IMG/VR virus record: IMGVR_UViG_3300047476_002043
Coordinates: 1 to 64,000 of that record
Length of the DNA: 64,000 nucleotides
Strand: one strand, 5' to 3'
From: a virus
Part shown: in pieces, positions 8,410 through 46,142 of the stretch
How the letters are laid out: every line of letters begins with the position of its first letter
Numbering within the stretch: position 1 is the stretch's first letter
Made by a program: the position numbers and the translations under genes
Notes under the pieces: generated by a model
Database searches by the model: none
Told to the model about the DNA's origin: nothing
Seen by the model: the letters and a program-made list of their open reading frames with translations, nothing else

Positions 8410-8522
8410 TATATGACCTCCCAATCTCATTGGTTATGGTAAGCTTACCTGTATTATGATCCCAGGTAACAATTAAAAAATAGCAGCTACCATAATCTTT
8501 GACGCAACCTCAAGGGGAACAA

Positions 8523-11500
8523 ATGCTCAGATACACACTCTCTACTGAAGAGATTTTCAGGTTCTTGAAGTCGTGTACTATCAAGAACTCTCATTTTGCG
8601 GATAGCTCAAGAAAGAAAGCCATCACTACACTCGGGCTTACAACTATCCTTAGGGCAGATTACAAAAATCTGATTCCTTACTACGCATCCATGCAAGGTC
8701 ACTACTTCATCGCTGATGGTTATGGTGGCGTCTTACCGCAAAACCTAATCAGCATCGATACAGTCTCTCCTGATGACGGCATCTCCCATGTTCCTATGGT
8801 GGTTAAATCCGTTGACACAGGTGAATCTATCCTGTTCACTAAAGCCAATCTTTTGGATCATCCTAAGACAGCTTTCGCCTACCGCATAGGTGGCGAAAGC
8901 TTCGACAGTCTTATTGAAAGATACCCGAAGCAGTCTGACCTTATCAAATCCATCCTGCATCCAGTTGACGACATTGAAGTCGCCATCAATGCACCAAACT
9001 ACACTCTCCTGAAATGGGACGAGACTCAACTTGAAGAGCAGGAAGTTGGTAGCATTATCGATGCTGTCTCCAATTTCCTGAAGATGTTCCGCAAGCGCTG
9101 GGACGTTAAAGAGTTCTCGTTCGAGGCATACTACCCGATAACGCAGTGGTCTCTCCTGTGGTCCGTTCTTCCCAATGTCATCTTCGGTCAGAGGATTAAA
9201 AACCTTAAAACCATCAATGCACATAGTGATCACATCTGGGAGTATCTCACCTCTAAAGGTTTGGGCGACTATAGAGCCGTGCTCACACACAGACAACAGA
9301 TGTTCTTGTACAGGAATATCAATTATCTGATCGCTAATCGTGGTAAACAGTCAACTCTTGAGATCTTGGCTAAGGAACTTCTTGATCCTTACCATATCAC
9401 ATTACTTGCCAAGCAGATCCTCCTCAATGCTGAAAATACCGCAGAGCGTGGCTGCCCGATAGTCGATATCGTCAGCATCGATATCAACAAAAGGGACACT
9501 CCAGCAACAGCCAAACTTAACGGCTATGAAGATCTTCAGACCATCATCTCCAGAGAAAGAGAAGGTGGATTGGAGTTTTCTCGTAGCGACATCGTTGTGG
9601 ATAACGGAGGAGAACTCACCTACAACGACACCATAATTGAGTATCAAGATAAGCAGATCGGTCATGCCAACTCTACTTGGTTGCCGACCAAGCTAGTTGA
9701 ACTCAATAGGAAGGATCTGTATACTCAATCGCACAACAACTTCGTTAAGTTCGCCATCCAGACGATCTTCTACAAACAGTCGATTAGTCAAATGGCTTAC
9801 AACATCGTTGTTCATCCGCTCGGAAGTGATCTTGAGGCTAATCTCACCATCGGTGAAGGTATCGCCTTGGCTTACTACTGCTCCAGCAAGATAATGAGCA
9901 AATCCGTTCTCGTCAGGGATAAGAACATTGTCTACTCTGTTGACGACCCGGAAGATCCGGATGATATCCCAGTTGATGTCACCATCAACATTGGTGCATC
10001 CGCTGATCTGATCGGCGAGGCCGTTATCTTGTACGAAGGTACTGAAGACGAAATCACCATAGATGTTGATGAGGGTAACCACCAGAATCTTCGTGGTAAA
10101 CTAATCCGCATCGTAGGATCTCCTACCCAGATCGTTATGGTCGACGACTTGTACAATTCGGCTAAGGCGCTAATAGGTAAAGTTGTGAAGGTCGAAGGTA
10201 ACTTCGTGGAAGTCTCGGAAGACAACTACGCGTCACTGAATAACAAAATCGTGATGGTTGCCGACCCTTACTACATACCCACATCTGCTGTTGTTACCAT
10301 GCCGCTTAAGTCCGGAAGAACGGTCCTCAATGACACCTTCTTCTACCGAGGCAACAAGCTATCCATCAAGCATACGTTGGATGTTGATGCTAGGTTCAAT
10401 CGATTTGGCGATACTTCCAAGGTCGCTCATTCTAGAACAGAACTGCTCGACATCATCGATACGCAATTTGCTGGGATGGAGCATGACCATAACTACGTCA
10501 GATCCAGAGGTGAACAAACCTACCACTTAGCGAATGACCTGTTCTACGATCAGGTCAGAGTTAAGGGAGAAATCCCTCTCAATACTCGGATCAACTACCT
10601 GACGTACAAAGACTGGTTCGACAATAGTGCCATCCTCAACTCGATCATCAATCTGATCGAGAGCTCCAAAGATGTTCGGATGGCGTACACTGATGTTGCT
10701 AACTCCATCATCAAATCGATCATCAATCTTGGAGACAGTAAGAGTACGGTGTTTAGTGATTTCACTAGCGACAACTTTGCGCTTATGCGTCAGCTGTTCA
10801 TCCAGCTGTGTAGCTACAACATCACATTCTTGGACACCGCCGCGAATCTCAGTTCTTATCATCAAGCGACCCCTATGGTTCTCAATGATAAGTCTGTCAG
10901 AGAGCAGTACACCGATTCCAAAATCAGGATCGATCCGTTCATCGTTGATACGACAACGAAGATTGAACGTGAAGGAGTTCTACTCAATACACTCAGACCT
11001 AGCGAAAGAGTTCCTAGAACCATTTCGAGTAGACGCAGAATGAAGAACCCAATCACGAGACGTGAGACAAGCGAAGTTTCAACAACCTCTCGAGTTTATG
11101 ATAGGACTAGAGTTGTTTACGATGGTAAGATTATCGGTAGAGCTGGCTCTATTGGTATGACAACTTTCGTGATCAAGTCGGTATCTCCTGTTATCAACGT
11201 TCCGCCTAAGGTTCTTAGCTCCTCCGCTACTGATCCTGAAATTCTTAGCTCGCTGATGATTGCTCATCTGAATTCTTCTGCATCTGACAGTGAGATCCTC
11301 AGTAATGTCAACATTCGCAAACTCAACAGCACGGCCACTGACGCTGAAATTCTCAGCAACCTCAATGTCTTGGCTTATCGTGGTATTCTCAACAGTAACG
11401 CTACGGACACAGAAATCCTTAGCTTCGCTGGTCACTTCAAACTCAATAGCACACCGTCGGATGCTGAAATCCTCAGTGAACTCGATGAGCATAAAGCACC

Positions 11501-12158
11501 TAACGTTCTCCATGTTACCGTTAGCGATAGTGAGATCATCTCCTTCGTTGGCGTCGGCATGCTGAATAGCGTGGCTGCTGATGGTGAGATCTTGAGTGAC
11601 AAATACGACACTGCGGCAATTCGCAAGGCTCTAACATCTACAACAACAGATAGTGAAATTCTGTCTAGCCTTGACGCTACTGTCAATGGCAAGACTCTGA
11701 ACAGCACTGCTGCTGATGCCGAAATCTTGAGCTCGCTTGGTCTGCCTGTCATTAACGGAACTGCTGCGGATAGTGAGATCCTGTCTACCATGAACTTTGG
11801 TACACTCACCGCTTCGTATCCTGTTCTTAGCGACACAGAGCGCCAACTCGTTGATGAAGCTGGCATTGTACTTACAGATGAACTCGGCAACATCCTCTAC
11901 TCGGATGCTACAGTTGAAACTGAAGTCCTTAGCTACGTTGGCGTTGGTACACCACGTGCCTTCCCGACATCCGATACTGAAATCACTAGCTCGATGGCAC
12001 CCTCTGGCGTCATGAGCGAAACGGTTGATCCTGAAATCCTGTCCGCCCTCCCGTTGGTGGGTACAGGATACCCAACATCAGATTCTGAAATCCTCTCCGT
12101 ACTACTGACGACAACAGTTAGTGGCACTCAGACTGATCCCACACTGATGGAAGGATAA
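8523..12158 (+). CDS. Virion structural/baseplate protein (phiKZ gp128-like) with C-terminal DxEILS repeat extension
   Basis: HIWEYLTSKG...QQMFLYRNINYLIANRGKQSTL and MRQLFIQLCSYNI segments; divergent from the portal gene; AAGGGG RBS. Confidence 0.7.
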   Translation: MLRYTLSTEEIFRFLKSCTIKNSHFADSSRKKAITTLGLTTILRADYKNLIPYYASMQGHYFIADGYGGVLPQNLISIDTVSPDDGISHVPMVVKSVDTGESILFTKANLLDHPKTAFAYRIGGESFDSLIERYPKQSDLIKSILHPVDDIEVAINAPNYTLLKWDETQLEEQEVGSIIDAVSNFLKMFRKRWDVKEFSFEAYYPITQWSLLWSVLPNVIFGQRIKNLKTINAHSDHIWEYLTSKGLGDYRAVLTHRQQMFLYRNINYLIANRGKQSTLEILAKELLDPYHITLLAKQILLNAENTAERGCPIVDIVSIDINKRDTPATAKLNGYEDLQTIISREREGGLEFSRSDIVVDNGGELTYNDTIIEYQDKQIGHANSTWLPTKLVELNRKDLYTQSHNNFVKFAIQTIFYKQSISQMAYNIVVHPLGSDLEANLTIGEGIALAYYCSSKIMSKSVLVRDKNIVYSVDDPEDPDDIPVDVTINIGASADLIGEAVILYEGTEDEITIDVDEGNHQNLRGKLIRIVGSPTQIVMVDDLYNSAKALIGKVVKVEGNFVEVSEDNYASLNNKIVMVADPYYIPTSAVVTMPLKSGRTVLNDTFFYRGNKLSIKHTLDVDARFNRFGDTSKVAHSRTELLDIIDTQFAGMEHDHNYVRSRGEQTYHLANDLFYDQVRVKGEIPLNTRINYLTYKDWFDNSAILNSIINLIESSKDVRMAYTDVANSIIKSIINLGDSKSTVFSDFTSDNFALMRQLFIQLCSYNITFLDTAANLSSYHQATPMVLNDKSVREQYTDSKIRIDPFIVDTTTKIEREGVLLNTLRPSERVPRTISSRRRMKNPITRRETSEVSTTSRVYDRTRVVYDGKIIGRAGSIGMTTFVIKSVSPVINVPPKVLSSSATDPEILSSLMIAHLNSSASDSEILSNVNIRKLNSTATDAEILSNLNVLAYRGILNSNATDTEILSFAGHFKLNSTPSDAEILSELDEHKAPNVLHVTVSDSEIISFVGVGMLNSVAADGEILSDKYDTAAIRKALTSTTTDSEILSSLDATVNGKTLNSTAADAEILSSLGLPVINGTAADSEILSTMNFGTLTASYPVLSDTERQLVDEAGIVLTDELGNILYSDATVETEVLSYVGVGTPRAFPTSDTEITSSMAPSGVMSETVDPEILSALPLVGTGYPTSDSEILSVLLTTTVSGTQTDPTLMEG
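11208..12155 (+). repeat. About 14 degenerate protein repeats (LNSxxxDxEILS)
   Basis: DPEIL, DSEIL, DAEIL, DTEIL, DAEIL, DSEII, DGEIL, DSEIL, DAEIL, DSEIL, ETEVL, DTEIT, DPEIL, DSEIL read directly from the translation. Confidence 0.9.
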
Positions 12159-12256: not shown

Positions 12257-13027
12257 ATGCGCAGAACCACTGTTGGTACAACTGTTCGCACATTCGATGT
12301 CGACGGCCAAAACCACGTTGATGGATGGTCCTTCTCGCTTACCGGCAACGGTGCTGACGACGCCCTCTTCACCATCGTCAACAGCAGCCTCAACGTTGCT
12401 GCTAACTACGTCCCTCCCGGTCCCAAAACCGTCAATGTTCTCATGAGTAAAGTCGGCGAACCGTCGGTTATTACCAACGTTCCCTTCGTCATTCAGGACC
12501 GTGGCGTTCAGATGGATAGCACTAAAGATCTGACGATCCCTGGTAGCTTCCTTCCCAACTGGACAGCCAACAGCGAAATCCACCTGATGTTCTATCCTGA
12601 TGCTGGCACCGAAATGCTCTTCATGGTTAGCAGCCTCAACGTTGGATACGGTGCCGTTGGTGCCAACACTTCGGGTGACGTCAGTGCGTACTCTCTCAAT
12701 GGAGCTTCCGCTGCTGATCTCCTCAACACCGTTGCCAGCGTCATTGTTCCTAACCAGTGGAACAACCTGACGATCACCAACAACGGCTCCAACCAGACTC
12801 TGTTCAAAGTCAATGGTGTCTCCATTCACCAGGCCGCGACCAACAAGCTTCGCAACCAAGGTACGGACGTTCTTTCTGTCATCAAGGTTGTCACCCCTAG
12901 CAAGAATGTTGTTGTGAGCAACTTCAAAGTTAAAATCAACAACGTCTACTATCTGGCCGAGGAACTCGAGACCGTCGCAGGTTCTCTTGCCACCTCCGGC
13001 GGACCTACCTTCAACGTTCTCAAATAA
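12257..13027 (+). CDS. Virion appendage protein: cadherin-like N-terminus plus beta-rich (LamG/lectin-like) domain; distant paralog of the 40256/41096/41988 genes
   Basis: VDGQNHVDGWSFSLTGNGADDALFTI aligns with VGGQGTANGWTFTLPAGVADNDLFQI; shares the C-terminal G-x-P-T-F-N. Confidence 0.7.
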   Translation: MRRTTVGTTVRTFDVDGQNHVDGWSFSLTGNGADDALFTIVNSSLNVAANYVPPGPKTVNVLMSKVGEPSVITNVPFVIQDRGVQMDSTKDLTIPGSFLPNWTANSEIHLMFYPDAGTEMLFMVSSLNVGYGAVGANTSGDVSAYSLNGASAADLLNTVASVIVPNQWNNLTITNNGSNQTLFKVNGVSIHQAATNKLRNQGTDVLSVIKVVTPSKNVVVSNFKVKINNVYYLAEELETVAGSLATSGGPTFNVLK

Positions 13028-38436: not shown

Positions 38437-39005
38437 TAGATTCTCCTTCGTTGGTTTGGGTGGCTCATAGAGTGATAACGACTACATTTACTTTAAATAT
38501 CTCTAAGGTCTCAATCCTCAATTTAAGAGTTTGTGATGTTCCCTACTCAGTGTTCTTTGTAATTCATTCCTTCGGCTTTAGAGTGTAGAATAACTTTGAG
38601 TTTTAGTTGATGATTTTTGCTTCGCCATCTTTTTTGAAAGATTCTTGATATCGATGAAATCTTACTTTGTTGTTCTACCCTTCCACTCAGGGAAGGGTAT
38701 AAGTTATGATATCTATAAATATTTTTTTAGTTGTTCTCGTGCGCGCTTGCGCGTATAGATACTAGTATTAAGATTACTTAATACTAGTTATATCTTTATT
38801 TATCTATTATTATTTCTTATATAAGAAGAAGTATTTATTAATATCTTCTTATACTCTTTAGAGTATAAGTTTATATTTATAAGTATCTTACGTAGTAAGA
38901 TACTTCCTTCTAGCAACGCAGGCCTGCGCGCGCGTATTTATAGTTGTCAAATTTAATTCCTAAGGGTAGTCATCTTATACCTAACCAATTTCAAGGAGCT
39001 CCCTA
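38437..39005. other. AT-rich, palindrome-dense intergenic region (origin candidate)
   Basis: No ORF; inverted repeats at 38676-38699, 38761-38788, 38814-38827, 38848-38869 and 38881-38905; flanked by GCGCGTA motifs. Confidence 0.6.
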
Positions 39006-39653
39006 ATGCCCGAAGATCCCAAAATCCACACCATCAGAGCTGAGGAAGATCCAACATTACCTCCTCCCGACTTAGCTATGCACTACGTCAACACAGTAAC
39101 CAAAGCCATCTGGCTCTCAGCAGGCATTGATACTGTTGATGACTGGATCCTGATCGTTCCTGCATCAAGAACAGTTACAGTTGGACCTGGCTTAGTTGGT
39201 GGTGGGGCACTGGATGACGATATCAGTATATCCATTGCCGATACCGATGTCACTGAGGGTACCTACCGTAACCCGCTCATGACAGTCAACTCAAGAGGTC
39301 AGGTTACTGATATCTCTGAAGGGCTAACTGGTAATGACGTTGTGCGTCGGTTGACGATCGGTATTGATGCTATCACTGATTCAACTTTCGATATACCGGA
39401 CCTCGTTCGAGTCATCGAAGTTAGAGTCGTCATCACAACGGCCTACGACAACAATGCTCGTATCTCTGTTGGTAAAGCTTCTAGTCCATCGTGCTATGCA
39501 ACGGACAACAAGAGCTACCCAGCTGCGATTGGCACTTATGTCTTTAGGCAGGATGTGTTTAGTGGTCTTGCTGCCGCTCCGCTACGAGTTAGCATCAGTA
39601 ACAATCCTACGGTTGGTGCTGGTGAAGTTGTGATCAAATACCTCCTTCCGTAA
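39006..39653 (+). CDS. Tail fibre-related protein
   Basis: GPGLVGGG...VTEGTY...TVNSRGQVT tail-fibre repeat motif; AAGGAG RBS. Confidence 0.65.
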   Translation: MPEDPKIHTIRAEEDPTLPPPDLAMHYVNTVTKAIWLSAGIDTVDDWILIVPASRTVTVGPGLVGGGALDDDISISIADTDVTEGTYRNPLMTVNSRGQVTDISEGLTGNDVVRRLTIGIDAITDSTFDIPDLVRVIEVRVVITTAYDNNARISVGKASSPSCYATDNKSYPAAIGTYVFRQDVFSGLAAAPLRVSISNNPTVGAGEVVIKYLLP

Positions 39654-39658
39654 GTTGA

Positions 39659-39693
39659 CGTTCTACTCCTCCCATGATGGGAGGAGTAGAACG
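39659..39693 (+). terminator. Intrinsic terminator
   Basis: CGTTCTACTCCTCCC-ATGAT-GGGAGGAGTAGAACG followed by a T tract. Confidence 0.85.
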
Positions 39694-39747
39694 CTTTTTG
39701 ATCATCCTATGGAACCATAATAATTCACCACCCAAGGGGTAACCTTT

Positions 39748-40233
39748 ATGCCCGATAGTACAGACATCATTGAAAATATCGTCGGTTTCATGACCGCCGA
39801 TGGTAAGGTGTGGCGACTTCCGACTGGAGTGGCTACAACCCTGAAGCAAGTCCTGGCCGTCACGAACGCATCGACAGGTCAGGTTGAATTCGTTACATTG
39901 ACCAAGACTGATCTTGGCTTAGGTAATGTGAGCAATGTTGACCAGTTACCAAGAAGTGCTGAATACGAAATGACAACAGCCGGAGTCGCTTACATGGTAG
40001 TTCAAGCCGACAACGGGAAGACTAAAGGCTGTGACACTGGAGTTGTTCTCGACGACCTCTTACCATTCACTCAAATCGTTGTGTTCAATGAAGCTAACGT
40101 TGACATCCCGTACACGCTTCCCGTTGGATACACCCAGAAAGGCGGTAATACGGATTCTAAAATCCGTAAACACACCTACGCCTCTTTCCAATGGATTTCT
40201 TCAACAGAGCTCCGCATTGCTTGCTCACCTTAA
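39748..40233 (+). CDS. Tail fibre-related protein
   Basis: VTLTKTDLGLGNVSN fibre motif. Confidence 0.6.
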   Translation: MPDSTDIIENIVGFMTADGKVWRLPTGVATTLKQVLAVTNASTGQVEFVTLTKTDLGLGNVSNVDQLPRSAEYEMTTAGVAYMVVQADNGKTKGCDTGVVLDDLLPFTQIVVFNEANVDIPYTLPVGYTQKGGNTDSKIRKHTYASFQWISSTELRIACSP

Positions 40234-40255
40234 CAACTAACATGGAGATGTTCTT

Positions 40256-41080
40256 ATGGCACTAGCCTTAGATGTTGTTCAGAACATCTTGCAATGTTCT
40301 GTTAACGGTCAGGGTACAGCCAACGGCTGGACCTTTAGTTTGCCAGCTGGAGTGCTGGACAATGATCAATTCCAGATTAGTGGAGATTATGTCCAGCCTA
40401 AGTCTACTGGGACATTTAGATGTGCTCATATGGTCGTTAGGATAATGGCTGTTAATGGCGGTACAACGGTTTATGCCAACAGGCTTATAAACGTTGTCGA
40501 CTTTGGTATGAAGATGACTGCCCTAGGGCAGGGAATATCCTACAACAGCACCATCTATTCGTCATTCGCTATTAACAACAGCGGACAAAATTCCTACACC
40601 ATCTCCTTCAATTTCTACATCAATGCGACACCATCGATCAACCATGAGTTTGCTATATTTGGTAAGTCCTCTGCGGCCACTTACTACATGTACATATACG
40701 TCACTACAACATCAGGCGTTATCTTGTACTGCAAAACCGGTGCTGGCGCATCTAACACGATGGTTCTAACGAGCACGAACACATGTAGACGTGGACAATG
40801 GAATCAGTATTCGATATCCATACCAGCTGGATCTTCGGTATTGTGGTCAACTACGCTCAATGGTGTAGTGACTACATCAGGTAGCAATGTGGCATTCCCT
40901 AACTTAAACTTTTCAACAGGCTTAGATTCGTACGGTGGACCATCAGGATCGGGAAACACGATGATCATTTCTGATCTTAAGGTTATTGAGAACTCAACAA
41001 CAAAGATCGATGAAAAACTCCAATCATTGCCGACCAATGCGTCAGCTTTAGGATCACCAACATTCAATCAATCCTCTTAA
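40256..41080 (+). CDS. Appendage paralog A (cadherin-like plus LamG/lectin-like)
   Basis: GQGTANGWTFSLPAGVLDNDQFQISGD; beta-rich C-domain with GQWNQY. Confidence 0.75.
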   Translation: MALALDVVQNILQCSVNGQGTANGWTFSLPAGVLDNDQFQISGDYVQPKSTGTFRCAHMVVRIMAVNGGTTVYANRLINVVDFGMKMTALGQGISYNSTIYSSFAINNSGQNSYTISFNFYINATPSINHEFAIFGKSSAATYYMYIYVTTTSGVILYCKTGAGASNTMVLTSTNTCRRGQWNQYSISIPAGSSVLWSTTLNGVVTTSGSNVAFPNLNFSTGLDSYGGPSGSGNTMIISDLKVIENSTTKIDEKLQSLPTNASALGSPTFNQSS

Positions 41081-41095
41081 CCCCAAGGTAACAAG

Positions 41096-41968
41096 ATGGC
41101 TATCTATGCGACAGCAGGACAGACTATCTTCAACTGCTCAGTTGGTGGACAAGGTACAGCCAACGGCTGGACTTTTACTTTACCTGCTGGAGTTGCAGAT
41201 AATGACCTTTTTCAAATCAGTGGTGATTCCGTCCAGTTCAAATCAGCCACAGCTTACTACTGTAGACAATACGCAGTGCGCGTCAACGGCGTTAATGGTG
41301 GCAACACGACACTGATTGCGCAAACGTTTATCGTTGGCGAGCGTGGGATGCGACCTAACCTAACTAGTGTATCGGGTTTGAGTTATAACTCAGCGATTTA
41401 CAACAGTCTGGTTAATACTAGCGCTTCCATGGACTGTACAGTTGAATTTGCGGCCTACATTCCTCCGGCAGGATCTAACTCGCTGTATTCGATCATGGCA
41501 AGGGGCACATCGTACCTCAGCAGTTCATCACCAACAGGAACTTCACACATTCTAGCGCTGATGATCTCCAACGTAGCGACTCCGACCGTAAGTCTATACG
41601 CACTCAACACGTCAGGAGCCCTCCAATCTTTAATTACTGCATCATCTGCATTCGGCCTTACTCGATCGGTGTGGATTAGTGTCAAGATAACGTGGACAGC
41701 AGCCGCAGCAACAACAGTCACGCTTGATATCAACGGTACTCAAGTTGTTGCTGGTACATCTTCATCCTATCACCTCAATTTACAACAGGCAGCTATTGAT
41801 GGAGGTATGTGGACAGGGTGTTCCAATGGAGTTGCTAACTCAGGTGCTCCTTTGATGGCAGATTTGGTTATCACTCAAAACAGTTACAACGTCCTCACCG
41901 ATCCTATGACGTCCCAACACGCCAACGCCACTCTTGTTGGCACCCCAGTCTTCAACCTACTCAACTAA
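41096..41968 (+). CDS. Appendage paralog B (cadherin-like plus LamG/lectin-like)
   Basis: GQGTANGWTFTLPAGVADNDLFQISGD; WISVKITW...LDING. Confidence 0.75.
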   Translation: MAIYATAGQTIFNCSVGGQGTANGWTFTLPAGVADNDLFQISGDSVQFKSATAYYCRQYAVRVNGVNGGNTTLIAQTFIVGERGMRPNLTSVSGLSYNSAIYNSLVNTSASMDCTVEFAAYIPPAGSNSLYSIMARGTSYLSSSSPTGTSHILALMISNVATPTVSLYALNTSGALQSLITASSAFGLTRSVWISVKITWTAAAATTVTLDINGTQVVAGTSSSYHLNLQQAAIDGGMWTGCSNGVANSGAPLMADLVITQNSYNVLTDPMTSQHANATLVGTPVFNLLN

Positions 41969-41987
41969 CACAACAAGGATCATCATC

Positions 41988-42863
41988 ATGTCTATCTACG
42001 CAACAGCAGGGCAGACTATCTTCAGCTGCAACGTCGGCGGTCAGGGTACAGCCAACGGCTGGACCTTCACCCTTCCGGCAGGCATCCAGGACAACGATAG
42101 CTTCCAGATCAGCGGCGACAACGTTCAATTCAAGTCAGCCATCACCTACTACTGCAAAACCTACAACATCCGTGTTCAGGGCGTTAACGGTTCCAGCTCC
42201 GCGCTCATTCTTCAGCCGATCACCATCAAGGAACGTGGCATGAAGTCTAGCGCTGCTACCGGTACTGGCGTTAGCTACAACTCAACCATCTGCAACGGCT
42301 GGGTCAACTCCAGCGCTACTGTCGATACCACAGTCGAATTCGCATTCTACATCCCGACTACAGCAGCGGCGACTGTCGCTTACTGCCTCTGTGCTAGGAC
42401 ATCTGGTACCAACATCACAACAACTGTTCCAACACAAGCGACAACAGTTCTCTCGATGCTGCTCGATACGACAACCAGTCCTAACGTAACGCTTTACGTC
42501 AGGAACCCCGCCGGTACCTTGATCACAACCCACTCAGCCATCTCTTCCTTCGGCTTGGTTCGTGGTAACTGGTACAGCTGCAAAATCACTTGGTCGGCCG
42601 CTGCCTCCACTGTCGTTACTCTCGACATCAATGGCATTCAGTCCAACGCCACTGCCTCTGCCAACAACCACATCGGCGGAGCCACCATCCAGACTGACGG
42701 TATCGTGTATACCGGAAGCGCCATCTCTAGCGGTACCAACTACCCGATCATCGCTGACCTTCGCGTCATCCAGGCCGGCTTCGGTGTTATCACTGACCCG
42801 ATGACCGCACAGCATTCTCAGGCTACACTTGTGGGTACACCTACCTTCAACCAAGTTAGCTGA
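41988..42863 (+). CDS. Appendage paralog C (cadherin-like plus LamG/lectin-like)
   Basis: MSIYATAGQ start with AAGGA RBS; GNWYSCKITW...LDING. Confidence 0.75.
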   Translation: MSIYATAGQTIFSCNVGGQGTANGWTFTLPAGIQDNDSFQISGDNVQFKSAITYYCKTYNIRVQGVNGSSSALILQPITIKERGMKSSAATGTGVSYNSTICNGWVNSSATVDTTVEFAFYIPTTAAATVAYCLCARTSGTNITTTVPTQATTVLSMLLDTTTSPNVTLYVRNPAGTLITTHSAISSFGLVRGNWYSCKITWSAAASTVVTLDINGIQSNATASANNHIGGATIQTDGIVYTGSAISSGTNYPIIADLRVIQAGFGVITDPMTAQHSQATLVGTPTFNQVS

Positions 42864-42879
42864 TAGGGCTGATTAAGTA

Positions 42880-44916
42880 ATGCGTACGGCCATCTCAACT
42901 GCGATGATTAGCAGCTTCGCGGCTTCGGTGGCCGTGTTGTCTGTAACCTTCGCTGATGAAGATATACTCCTCAATAACTTCAGTGAAACTACTCCTGCGG
43001 TTATTGGGGTAACCTTCGTCGATAACGATGTTCTTAGAGACAATATGGTCGATGAGGTTATGCCTATATCGACCAACTTCGTCGACCCAGATATCTTGTT
43101 GAAGGATGTTGATGAAGAGCCCTTTTACGGGAGTACCGCATTTGTTGATAGTGAAATCTTGCGCACCGATATGCAAGATATCACCAATCCAATAAACGCT
43201 TATTTCGCGGATGGAGACATCCTAGCAAGAAACCTTTCTGAAGCATACCCAGGAACAATAACTGCGGTAGAAACGGATAGTGATGTCTTGCTGAATAACT
43301 GGAACGAAACCATCCTCACGGGATCAACATCTTTTACCGATAGCGATATCCTTTTAACGGGACTCACCGCTTCGTACCCAGCTCTAATATCGGCAGTCAT
43401 TGTCGATGCCGACATCTTACTCGCGAACATGTCCGATGGCGTCGCCACGATCGTCACATCGTTCGCCGATAACGACATCCTTTTACGAAGCCTAGCTGAG
43501 GCCCCAAGTTACGGAAGCGCATCAATAGCCGATAGTGACATTCTCAGCAAAAACTTAACTGAAAGCTACAGCACAGCCATAAGTGCTTCGTTTGCTGATA
43601 GTGATGTTTTGTTGAGAGTGCTTAATGAAGGTCCCGCCTCCGGATCGGCCTCTGTAGTTGATAGTGATGTGATGCGCGCGGCGCTTTCCGAGAGCTACCC
43701 AACATCAGTCTCGACTAGCTTCCCGGATACAGACATCCTGCTCGTTGTTCGCGCAGAAGCCCCAACATCGGGATCCACGAACATACCAGATACGGATATC
43801 CTTCTGATCAATATGCCCTCCGGGCCGACGATTGGAAGTACCAACATCCCAGACTCGGATATGCTGCTTAACCAAGTTACAGCAGGCCCTTCGATCGGTA
43901 GCACCACGATACCTGATAGCGACATTCTTCTCAAATCTCTCACTGCCAACGGCGGCACAACCATCACCACATCCTTCCCAGATAGTGATATCCTTAGAAG
44001 GAGTCTTGCAGCTGAGCCTACCATGGGTAGCACAACCATACCCGATAGTGACATACTACTCAGATCCTTGGTTGAACTCCCACTTACCGGTAGCACCACG
44101 ATTCCAGACACAGACATCCTCAAAGCTAACCTTGTTGAAAATGGTGGCGTAGCCATCTCTACAACATTCGCCGATGCGGATATCCTCAATCGAAATCTCA
44201 CCGCTGGTCCGACAATCGGATCGACTACAATCCCTGATAGCGACATCCTTGTTGCTAACAACACGGCGACCTACCCAGGTGTTGTTACAACCTCGATTCC
44301 CGATGCGGATATACTCCTCAATAACCGAACAGCCGGACCAACTAACGGTTCGACATCTATTCCGGATAGCGATATCTTGCTTAGATCTCTTACCGCTTCT
44401 GGAGGCACACTCGTCACTGCTACGTTCGCTGATGCTGATGTTCTCCTTAGGTCGCTCACAGCCTCCGGTGGTACCCTCATTACAGCCACATTCGCGGATG
44501 CCGACATCTTGCGCATGTCCCTTGCTGAATACTACCCGACACCCGGTTCGACTTCGTTTGCTGATAGTGATGTCTTGCTCAAAGATATGCCTGCGACAAC
44601 AGTTCTCGCCGGTAGTGCAAACTACCCCGATTCTGACATTGAAAGACTCAACCTTACAGGTTCCGCTGGTAACGGTGGGTTGGCAACATTCCCTGACTCC
44701 GACATCGAAAGACGTAATCTCACCGGCTCTGCTGGCAATGGCGGTCTCGCTACCTTCCCGGATAACGATATCGAGAGAAGGAACCTTACAGGTTCCGCTG
44801 GTAACGGTGGGTTGGCTACCTTCCCCGACAGTGATATCGAACTTAAAGTCGCTACTGCTCCTGCCTACCAGGCAACGATCACCGACCTTGATTCGGTCTA
44901 CACTATCAACACATAA
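42880..44916 (+). CDS. Repeat protein made of 30 units of 21-22 aa (xDxDIL)
   Basis: Units such as PDSDILLRSLVELPLTGSTTI counted in the translation. Confidence 0.85.
   Translation: MRTAISTAMISSFAASVAVLSVTFADEDILLNNFSETTPAVIGVTFVDNDVLRDNMVDEVMPISTNFVDPDILLKDVDEEPFYGSTAFVDSEILRTDMQDITNPINAYFADGDILARNLSEAYPGTITAVETDSDVLLNNWNETILTGSTSFTDSDILLTGLTASYPALISAVIVDADILLANMSDGVATIVTSFADNDILLRSLAEAPSYGSASIADSDILSKNLTESYSTAISASFADSDVLLRVLNEGPASGSASVVDSDVMRAALSESYPTSVSTSFPDTDILLVVRAEAPTSGSTNIPDTDILLINMPSGPTIGSTNIPDSDMLLNQVTAGPSIGSTTIPDSDILLKSLTANGGTTITTSFPDSDILRRSLAAEPTMGSTTIPDSDILLRSLVELPLTGSTTIPDTDILKANLVENGGVAISTTFADADILNRNLTAGPTIGSTTIPDSDILVANNTATYPGVVTTSIPDADILLNNRTAGPTNGSTSIPDSDILLRSLTASGGTLVTATFADADVLLRSLTASGGTLITATFADADILRMSLAEYYPTPGSTSFADSDVLLKDMPATTVLAGSANYPDSDIERLNLTGSAGNGGLATFPDSDIERRNLTGSAGNGGLATFPDNDIERRNLTGSAGNGGLATFPDSDIELKVATAPAYQATITDLDSVYTINT
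44626..44841 (+). repeat. 66-nt tandem repeat, 3 copies plus a partial
   Basis: PD(S/N)DIER(L/R)NLTGSAGNGGLATF x3 with synonymous divergence. Confidence 0.9.
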
Positions 44917-44928
44917 GGAACCTGCACA

Positions 44929-45273
44929 ATGTTACCCAACGAAAGAATGTACAAGGTCACGTTCAAGGATGGAACGGTTAATAACGTTCCGTTCGAGATC
45001 CCGCCTGAACCGAGTGATGCAACTGGTATCGTTTCAGTCGTTCTGAAAGATCCGACGCCAACTACCGATGTTGTACAAGTTAGCGCCAGTTTCTGGCGCA
45101 GCTTACCCGATGAAATCAGAGGAGCGTTCTTGGTTTATCGATCATCGATAACTCAGGCTCTCGAAGAAGGCGATTATGTCGCCGCTAGACTCTGTATAGG
45201 CAACGTTACGGTACCTCCAGAATTGGAAGCCGTTAAACAACAGTTGCTTGATTTGATACCAACAGGGCCTTGA
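44929..45273 (+). CDS. Small hypothetical protein, possible fibre assembly chaperone
   Basis: 114 aa ending the appendage operon; AAGGA RBS. Confidence 0.6.
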   Translation: MLPNERMYKVTFKDGTVNNVPFEIPPEPSDATGIVSVVLKDPTPTTDVVQVSASFWRSLPDEIRGAFLVYRSSITQALEEGDYVAARLCIGNVTVPPELEAVKQQLLDLIPTGP

Positions 45274-45276
45274 TCC

Positions 45277-45308
45277 ACCATCCCATCTCCAAAAGGAGAT
45301 GGGATGGT
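45277..45308 (+). terminator. Stem-loop terminator
   Basis: ACCATCCCATCTCC-AAAA-GGAGATGGGATGGT. Confidence 0.8.
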
Positions 45309-45350
45309 TATTCTATGCCGTCATAAAAAACAACAAAAGGAACCAAAATC

Positions 45351-45881
45351 ATGCGATCGTTCTTAATCCTCCTCATTACACTCATCCTTACCTCGTGTGG
45401 TATGGTTGGGTTCGAAAACAAATCCGCCGTTGCTGCCAGAGAACATACGGCACCTATCAACGATGGTGAGTACGACAATATCACTTCAACCGAAGGTAAG
45501 GTTGTCATTCGTCGGACAACCTCCTATCGTGCATTGATCAAAGCCGATACTCATGTGGACACCAAGCAACAAGGTGTTGATGCATCGAGTAAAGTTGATG
45601 TCAATCTTGCGGTTAGTAAGTACCTCGGGACCATCTTCACTGGAGGAGCTGGTTCGGCTATGATGGCCCTCGATGCTTTGGTTGCTAAGCCTAGCGATGC
45701 ACTTACTTCGGAGGAAGCTCTGGCTCTTGCCGTTTCTGCCAATAAGAAAAACGGCGGGGTTCAGCCTGGTAAGGAGGAGATCCTTGCTGCTGTTGAAAAG
45801 TATTTACCATCGGCTTCTACGGATAAAGCTAAAGAAGCAGCCATGGCGCTTATCAACGACTTGAAATCCAAAAAGGAATAA
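45351..45881 (+). CDS. Lipoprotein
   Basis: Signal peptide MRSFLILLITLILTS-C. Confidence 0.75.
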   Translation: MRSFLILLITLILTSCGMVGFENKSAVAAREHTAPINDGEYDNITSTEGKVVIRRTTSYRALIKADTHVDTKQQGVDASSKVDVNLAVSKYLGTIFTGGAGSAMMALDALVAKPSDALTSEEALALAVSANKKNGGVQPGKEEILAAVEKYLPSASTDKAKEAAMALINDLKSKKE

Positions 45882-45884
45882 GTT

Positions 45885-46142
45885 ATGAAAAAATTAAACC
45901 TTCTCTTCCTCATCCTGTTGTTTGCTAGCTGCGCTAGCGTCTTCAGCCCTACCTCCAGCTCTACCGGCACCGTCAAAGACAAAGGTCAGATGCGTGGCGA
46001 TTATGCCAACATCAGCGGTAAGCGAGGTGTTGAGATCATCGAAGAAACAACTGTCGTTTATGAAGGCGACCTGAAGTCAGTTCAGGAAGCCTTGCAGAAG
46101 GACGTCACTGCTAAGCAGGGCGCAAAAACAAAAGGCGAATGA
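45885..46142 (+). CDS. Lipoprotein
   Basis: Signal peptide MKKLNLLFLILLFAS-C. Confidence 0.75.
   Translation: MKKLNLLFLILLFASCASVFSPTSSSTGTVKDKGQMRGDYANISGKRGVEIIEETTVVYEGDLKSVQEALQKDVTAKQGAKTKGE

Follow-up and report, generated by a model that had tools for sequence, protein, structure and literature searches.

More than one receptor-binding protein (RBP) can be carried by a phage tail fiber, and the branched RBP systems of Klebsiella phages are reportedly built in this way around a shared N-terminal anchor. Regarding jumbo phages, host recognition is poorly understood: excerpts of the phiKZ atlas describe a fiber base with the paralogs gp131, gp133, gp134, and gp135, which share an N-terminal anchor, and report that the phiKZ fibers could not be modeled (PMC13250141). 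A gene cluster to be compared with these systems is found in IMG/VR virus record IMGVR_UViG_3300047476_002043, a record of 82,023 bp with an estimated completeness of 31%, from which the first 64 kb are analyzed here (the window). It comprises three tandem genes coding for the paralogs A, B, and C and a gene coding for a 678-amino-acid (aa) repeat protein, while a fourth paralog, D, is encoded elsewhere in the window next to the gene of a baseplate wedge protein (Table 1). With a confidence somewhat above even, the cluster can be read as a host-adhesion module of the tail fiber or baseplate periphery, in which beta-solenoid stalks would be combined with interchangeable cadherin-lectin heads having a common anchor domain.

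An earlier reading of this sequence (the original prediction) had described three tandem paralogs with alike N-termini and divergent C-termini, and this description is confirmed for proteins of 274, 290, and 291 aa, the N-domain of which is constrained. Overall, B shares 52% identity with C and 34% with A. Among the three paralogs, amino-acid identity reaches 80–89% in the N-core (residues 16–50) and 26–45% in the C-domain. Because the identity of the N-core is kept despite differences in 48–71% of the codons for identical residues, this region is, judged from its codons, old and under purifying selection, with no fresh copying. A word-based protein search with paralog B had as its sole matches a twin at 98% and a paralog from the phage itself. 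Two short nucleotide blocks were also observed in the N-domains. A block of 20 nt is identical in A, B, and C (40313–40332, 41153–41172, and 42045–42064) amid differing synonymous sites, and heads might be swapped by recombination or conversion anchored in this block. A piece of 53 nt (41159–41211) occurs inside another contig in the freshwater runs X3 and X6 (2,126 bp in X6), where its flanks are unlike the locus, which points to a further paralog elsewhere in the phage or in a relative.

The N-domain is, according to profile comparisons in both directions, homologous to bacterial cadherin domains minus their first strand. A profile of five N-domains finds six bacterial proteins carrying PF00028 in precomputed Pfam lists, from P0008 (E 5e-41) to P0017 (E 4e-7), and PF00028 was confirmed on P0008, P0013, and P0017. 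In the reverse direction, a profile of 99 positions, built from 36 domains of bacterial cadherin proteins and run on six-frame open reading frames (ORFs) of the 82-kb record, matches paralogs C (E 1.2e-8), B (E 1.3e-8), A (E 3e-6), and D (E 3.2e-5), the next ORF being at E 0.39. The aligned profile positions are 18–96 for A and 15–86 for B. Alignments start with profile positions 15–18 at residues 5–8 of A, B, and C (residue 5 of B being position 15), and at position 9 for D. Since Met1 aligns at about position 11–12 of the 99, the first ~10 positions, i.e., the segment 'PTDIALSNSS' (strand A), are absent; upstream of A, B, and D there are just 5–7 open codons. That the paralogs are cadherin-like and start after the first strand, as originally proposed, is borne out by these profile comparisons. 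The alignment does not give a complete seven-strand sandwich with strand A, and in the AlphaFold2 (AF2) prediction, where the N-domain has a predicted local distance difference test score (pLDDT) of 38–75, the strands are too uncertain to count.

Cadherin domains have acidic Ca2+-binding motifs at their edges. In the profile alignments of the paralogs, acidic cadherin positions are not kept, G-G-Q-G-T-A-N standing against 'tDqdagd' and non-acidic residues against 'Dfet'. No cadherin family was matched by the paralog N-domains in Pfam, even at E<=10, and the sole cadherin-type match of the whole paralogs in Pfam, 'Cadherin-like' PF12733 (E 0.15), lies in the C-domain of B. An immunoglobulin V-domain lead, in which all 28 of the 28 rows found with the N-domain profile were antibody variable-domain chains, all of them below threshold (E 0.09–1.6), was superseded by the cadherin result.

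The C-domain is predicted to be a lectin jelly roll of the concanavalin A (ConA)-like type, in agreement with the beta-rich, lectin-like C-termini originally proposed. In the AF2 model of paralog B, the block pLDDT is 57–88 across residues 111–230 and above 74 for 151–220. Foldseek gives 76 PDB matches to this model at E<=1e-3, and those listed are all ConA-like, namely sialidase CBM40, PL7 lyases, laminin LG, and clostridial Hc lectin subdomains. With VIA-align, sialidase CBM40, pentraxins, and LamG domains are superposed on model residues 81–277 with Z scores of 9–11.2. A comparison with predicted viral structures (BFVD) gives 97 matches at E<=1e-3, phage 'baseplate wedge initiator' and LamG proteins being among them. 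In Pfam, Laminin_G_3 has no match in A, B, or C, and it is matched below threshold by paralog D (E 0.0014, 19.2 bits vs. a cut-off of 27.6) and by P0003 (E 0.012), a relative of the repeat protein considered below.

The C-terminal tail that follows this domain carries four residues, G282, P284, F286, and N287, that are invariant in six of six aligned family members, the distant paralog D included, and AF2 models it as disordered in paralog B (pLDDT <50, residues 268–290). This bears on a rather unlikely alternative, that the tail (…G-x-P-x-F-N…) closes its own N-domain, as in a permuted fold, or inserts into the next paralog to make head-to-tail chains, the repeat protein then being an independent rod. 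Docking or strand donation would suit a conserved terminal peptide that is modeled as disordered, most ConA-like structural alignments do not reach the tail, their ends falling mostly between residues 262 and 278, and by eye the tail resembles the 'SPFN(L/V)LLS' domain starts of some cadherin repeats of P0008. However, a strand-A profile misses the tail in seven of seven family members, its best rows (E >=0.27) lying elsewhere, no pairing of tail and N-domain is seen in the AF2 model, and the tail may be just the last jelly-roll strand, poorly modeled from a 6-row alignment.

Regarding the repeat protein, motif counting confirms the original description of a 678-aa protein made almost wholly of 30 repeats of 21–22 aa with a DxD motif. 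The pattern D.[DE][IVM] has 30 matches between residues 26 and 650, spaced by 21 (14 times) or 22 residues (15 times). The unit consensus is approximately [F/I][P/A]-D-S-D-I-L-L-x-N-L-T-...-G-S-T, with the first D conserved in 30/30 units, the second in 29/30, and L at +4 in 25/30. The mean pairwise identity of the units is 36% in protein and 45% in DNA. Since DNA identity is this low and Tandem Repeats Finder sees the last three copies only, the array is, on these comparisons, old and maintained by protein-level selection. The repeat protein has 19 matches to D.[DE]I[LMI] and the wedge protein has 12, against four in all the remaining 355 six-frame ORF segments of the window together, from which the repeat pattern is judged not to be due to chance.

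A word-based protein search found no relative of the repeat protein, and a HMMER scan of 1.84 billion representative proteins gave five matches with one true relative, P0003. The other four, P0004–P0007, were rejected on reading as unrelated low-complexity repeat proteins. Similarly, a match to PDB chain 8h2i_cU (PBCV-1 P22) with a summed E of 2e-5 was rejected as repeat-on-repeat noise, being made of 12 pieces each with E ~7 or worse.

Modeled by AF2 from its single sequence, the repeat protein is predicted to be all-beta with two strands per unit. Right-handed beta-helices are superposed by VIA-align on residues ~13–310 of this model with Z scores of 16–18, and phage tailspikes with Z scores of 14–17; for 3p4g, a Ca2+-dependent beta-helical antifreeze protein, Z is 16.5 with a root-mean-square deviation of 2.9 A over 229 residues. 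An ESM Atlas model, with a predicted template modeling (pTM) score of 0.49, has 8 of 10 structure rows with a TM score >0.5 by query. Its neighbors are ice-nucleation and beta-strand-repeat proteins (TM 0.53–0.63; ice-nucleation proteins 0.56–0.63) and an unnamed bacterial cluster (TM 0.80). The AF2 and ESM Atlas predictions, independent but weak, agree on a self-contained solenoid.

An array adjoins a paralog at all three loci seen, two in the genome of the window and one in the related contig IMGVR_UViG_3300043425_001190 (L005), which carries P0003. The co-occurrence of the two gene types, which the original prediction named as a check, is found at 3/3 loci examined. The gene order in L005 is the same as in the cluster, with a fiber-like gene, one paralog, the repeat gene, and a homologue of the 114-aa gene. 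P0003 has seven 'PD-x-DIQRRNL'-type units followed by ~210 residues with the sub-threshold Laminin_G_3 match, and no cadherin domain lies between them; on sequence, P0003 looks like a head-bearing stalk in one chain. At L005 9992–10003, TAA and two codons are all that separates the paralog from the repeat gene, and both genes share one reading frame there; in the window, their frames differ. A 705-aa 'open frame' reported at this L005 junction could not be reconciled with the TAA there.

The second pairing in the window involves the wedge protein, the tail of which is an array of shorter extent. Residues 99–330 of its N-terminal part match PDB chain 9xqs_C (PHIKZ128) with E 6.5e-26 and the 'virion structural protein' chains 36za_sR and 11lx_Bh with E ~1e-31, and this part is, by these matches, homologous to phiKZ gp128. 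In the available excerpts of the phiKZ atlas, gp128 is a wedge protein and virion component, forming a heterotrimer with two gp87 subunits (PMC13250141). The N-terminal part is present in 269 phage records, in none of which coverage of the query reaches 80%, and the listed rows all end at or before residue 471; the homologue of phage Noxifer has 711 aa only. The middle of the protein (residues ~470–910, ~440 aa) lies past every listed phage-record match, and no Pfam family matched it. Paralog D was found by a whole-record search with paralog B, and its BLASTP matches to A and to the L005 paralog have E values of 5e-7 and 1.7e-10, respectively. The idea that the wedge tail and paralog D form a cassette inserted between conserved neighbors was dropped, the post-wedge gene being DUF7941 in Noxifer, with no similarity to the DUF7208 gene of the window.

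In the host-adhesion module favored here, the three paralogs and paralog D would be small RBPs, each head having a cadherin-type beta-sandwich without its first strand and then a ConA-like lectin jelly roll. The constrained N-domain would be the common anchor, and the divergent lectin domains would confer different specificities, probably for glycans. The 678-aa protein is predicted to fold alone into a long beta-solenoid rod with one 21/22-residue unit per coil, which at ~0.48 nm for each of the 30 coils would be roughly 14 nm long, and the D-x-D of each coil is a probable binding site for Ca2+ or another cation. This rod would be a stalk or spacer, and the wedge protein would be prolonged by another, shorter array with the core motif in common. 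Gene adjacency suggests that the heads are probably carried by the rods, since each array seen has a paralog as its neighbor.

Several observations weigh against this reading. Both models are of low confidence, with a mean pLDDT of 61 and an alignment of 6 rows for paralog B, and a pLDDT of 57 and a pTM of 0.42 for the repeat protein in AF2. Foldseek gave no PDB match to the latter at E<=0.001, the best row being at E 0.68. This model is a monomer, and phage fibers are usually trimers; moreover, a pure stalk would need cargo, as the repeat protein itself lacks a head domain, and the N-terminus of this protein is hydrophobic, a possible signal peptide judged from sequence. Neither the paralogs nor the repeat protein matched a Pfam or PHROG family over threshold. 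Co-occurrence is based on two genomes only, both of them fragments. Finally, the unit profiles of the two arrays gave no cross-match (E >1), the 5-residue core alone being in common, and the claim made for the arrays is limited to this common core motif because of that result. Searches for further relatives in viral contigs, JGI metagenomes, and species genomes found only IMGVR_UViG_3300043425_001190, which is without a wedge gene or a wedge-tail match.

How the N-domain would be completed is a separate question. Completion of the strand-A-less domain in trans, either by array units or by the C-tail of a neighbor, would turn the module into a non-covalent, multivalent string of exchangeable heads on a wedge-anchored repeat scaffold, to which only a small chance is given. 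No paper on such a trans-completed phage adhesin assembly was found in the literature searched; if true, the heads would be assembled on a principle like that of cellulosomes or pili, which is undescribed for phage adhesins in that literature. A donor strand matching the missing strand was not identified by profile scoring among the repeats or the C-tails.

The original prediction went further and proposed a scaffold-and-cartridge system, in which each D-x-D-I-L unit donates a strand to the cadherin domain of one paralog and the repeat protein displays many lectin heads; on this model, the wedge tail would do likewise. Its premises of a cadherin N-domain without strand A, a lectin C-domain, and co-occurring gene types stand, while strand donation itself is unsupported, and the whole is decidedly improbable. 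It is favored by the lack of the first ~10 cadherin positions, the adjacency of array and paralog at 3/3 loci, a nearly invariant core motif, and the co-variation of types by locus, DxDILL going with A, B, and C, DxEILS with D, and DxDIQRRNL with the L005 paralog; in addition, classical cadherins are known to exchange their strand A. Against it, the resemblance of each repeat to the missing strand does not go beyond the 'DIxL' core. Cadherin columns 1–30 score 1.3 bits on the repeat protein, a value reached by 88 of the 175 scoring shuffles (of 200), and the value observed with columns 1–16 is reached by 99/181 scoring shuffles. Because about half of the scoring shuffles reach the observed score, the likeness of the units to strand A is, by this measure, not above chance. 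In P0003, the repeats lead to a LamG-like head with no intervening cadherin domain, and the most conserved part of the N-domain (16–50) is also the most conserved part of cadherins generally and need not be an interface. The original prediction named folding of the repeat protein alone as a solenoid among the outcomes that would speak against it, and the two independent AF2 and ESM Atlas models, at low confidence, show such a beta-solenoid, the units being buried in a continuous fold. A complex prediction for paralog B with repeat residues 1–110 and 540–678 had a score of 0.00, which is neither for nor against binding.

Very improbable is export of the repeat protein as a non-virion protein that acts at the envelope, e.g., by masking the surface or excluding superinfection, jointly with two downstream lipoprotein-like genes: its N-terminus (one Arg, ~20 residues that are hydrophobic or small for the most part, and a T-F-A/D junction preceding the first repeat), the two lipobox-like ORFs that follow at 45351–46142, and the secreted bacterial adhesins and ice-nucleation proteins among the top structural analogues would fit it, but the signal-like N-terminus is judged from sequence only, the homologous N-terminus in P0003 is less hydrophobic, AF2 places residues 19–25 in the first solenoid strand, the gene lies inside a fiber-like operon with an order conserved in the relative, and the other array belongs to a baseplate wedge protein, the phiKZ counterpart of which is a virion component.

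Table 1. Positions in the window of the cluster genes and of the wedge gene, its array, and paralog D (L005, IMGVR_UViG_3300043425_001190).
Feature	Position (nt)	Strand	Basis or remark
1219-aa phiKZ gp128-like baseplate wedge protein	8499..12158	+	PDB-chain matches
Wedge-tail array, 14 D/E-x-E-I/V-L-type repeats (residues 912–1219)	11232–12158	+	Spacing mostly 18 or 22 residues
Paralog D, 256 aa, distant fourth member directly after wedge gene	12257..13027	+	E 6.3e-5 to B
215-aa operon-leading gene, tail-fiber-like N-part	39006..39653	+	Weak PHROG matches only
161-aa fiber-like protein	39748..40233	+	C-part 39% identical to 273-aa L005 protein, E 2.8e-18
Paralog A, 274 aa, truncated cadherin-type N-domain and predicted ConA-like domain	40256..41080	+	Alignments, cadherin profile
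Paralog B, 290 aa, N-domain ~1–80, predicted ConA-like domain ~81–277, conserved C-tail 278–290	41096..41968	+	
Paralog C, 291 aa counted from homologous ATG	41988..42863	+	52% identical to B
Repeat protein, 678 aa, 30 repeats	42880..44916	+	Motif counts, unit consensus
114-aa protein, role unassigned, conserved neighbor	44929..45273	+	Similarity to L005 gene

With regard to the genomic surroundings, a gene-free gap of 569 bp precedes the 215-aa gene, from which tightly packed genes run on in the plus strand (Table 1). In a PHROG scan, the 215-aa protein matches phrog_5181 (unknown function, E 1.7e-6) and phrog_38058 ('tail fiber protein', E 0.0067), and the 273-aa L005 orthologue of the 161-aa protein matches phrog_22284 ('tail fiber protein', E 1.2e-7); by these fiber-type matches, weak for the 215-aa protein, the cluster looks like a fiber module. 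Pfam and PHROG scans of the seven cluster genes gave nothing over threshold, and blastn of 39000–46000 against a phage collection gave no match. For paralog C, the ORF list has a longer TTG-start form from 41934. The N-terminal 44 residues of the 114-aa protein are 41% identical to a 292-aa protein encoded after the repeat gene in L005 (E 1.8e-7). Directly downstream of the cluster, two small plus-strand ORFs (45351–45881 and 45885–46142) have lipoprotein-like starts (…L-T-S-C-G… and …F-A-S-C-A…) and could code for spanin-type or exclusion lipoproteins.

The virus is an uncultivated freshwater phiKZ-like jumbo phage, since a phage multisubunit RNA polymerase beta subunit (phrog_2962, E 2e-92), topoisomerase II, and phiKZ-type virion proteins (e.g., phrog_3004, E 3e-99) are encoded in the window. 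At least part of the locus is found nearly unchanged in seven freshwater metagenome runs from six studies, two of the seven possibly being the record's own source; locus pieces are >=99% identical in runs X3 and X4, and a ~98% variant occurs in X6. In a freshwater metatranscriptome library, X5, contigs are >=99% identical over parts of paralogs A, B, and C and the repeat gene (window 40657–44236), which is a hint of expression at most, as DNA can occur in such libraries.

The heads would represent a new architecture, a truncated cadherin domain together with a lectin domain, and the stalk a new repeat family with almost no relatives, i.e., one among 1.84 billion representative proteins. Their recurring genomic pairing points to a physical link between rod and head, including a rod grown from a baseplate wedge. 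If the heads dock on the repeats, the module would be a compact natural multivalent display system; if they do not, it would still be a clear case of receptor-binding diversification in an uncultivated freshwater phage.

Compared with known assemblies built from a shared module, scaffoldins (cohesin-dockerin) and chaperone-usher systems resemble the locus in having an array beside proteins that share one module, or an Ig-like fold minus one strand. They differ in that no cohesin, dockerin, or pilin family was detected with Pfam and no donor strand was identified; in pilins, moreover, the missing strand is the last one, while in the paralogs it is the first. The antifreeze domain 3p4g, ice-nucleation solenoids, and tailspikes are similar to the rod in its predicted form, a long single-chain beta-solenoid with short regular repeats and an acidic pair per coil, but no sequence similarity to them was found, and the fold of the rod is a low-confidence prediction. 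The repeat period is 19 residues in the antifreeze protein and 16 in ice-nucleation proteins, vs. 21/22 in the repeat protein.

Bacterial cadherin adhesins (PF00028; P0008, P0013) share the N-domain, which aligns to their repeat positions ~15–96 with E values of 1e-8 to 3e-5. Unlike these adhesins, which have arrays of such domains, the paralogs have a single one, in which the first ~10 positions are gone and the acidic positions after strands B and D are replaced. The multi-RBP systems of phages have in common with the cluster adjacent genes with a conserved N-terminal part and divergent C-terminal binding domains, in the baseplate and fiber setting of jumbo myophages, while no sequence similarity to multi-RBP or branched-fiber systems was found in PHROG, phage-DNA, and PDB-chain searches. 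The anchor is here of the cadherin type without strand A instead of a gp131-like N-domain with a helix bundle, the heads are predicted small ConA-like lectin domains instead of propellers or depolymerase beta-helices, and the proteins have 256–304 aa only, with a dedicated repeat-only protein alongside. Judged from these comparisons, the logic of the locus matches that of the known multi-RBP systems, while its building blocks differ and belong to two nearly orphan families.

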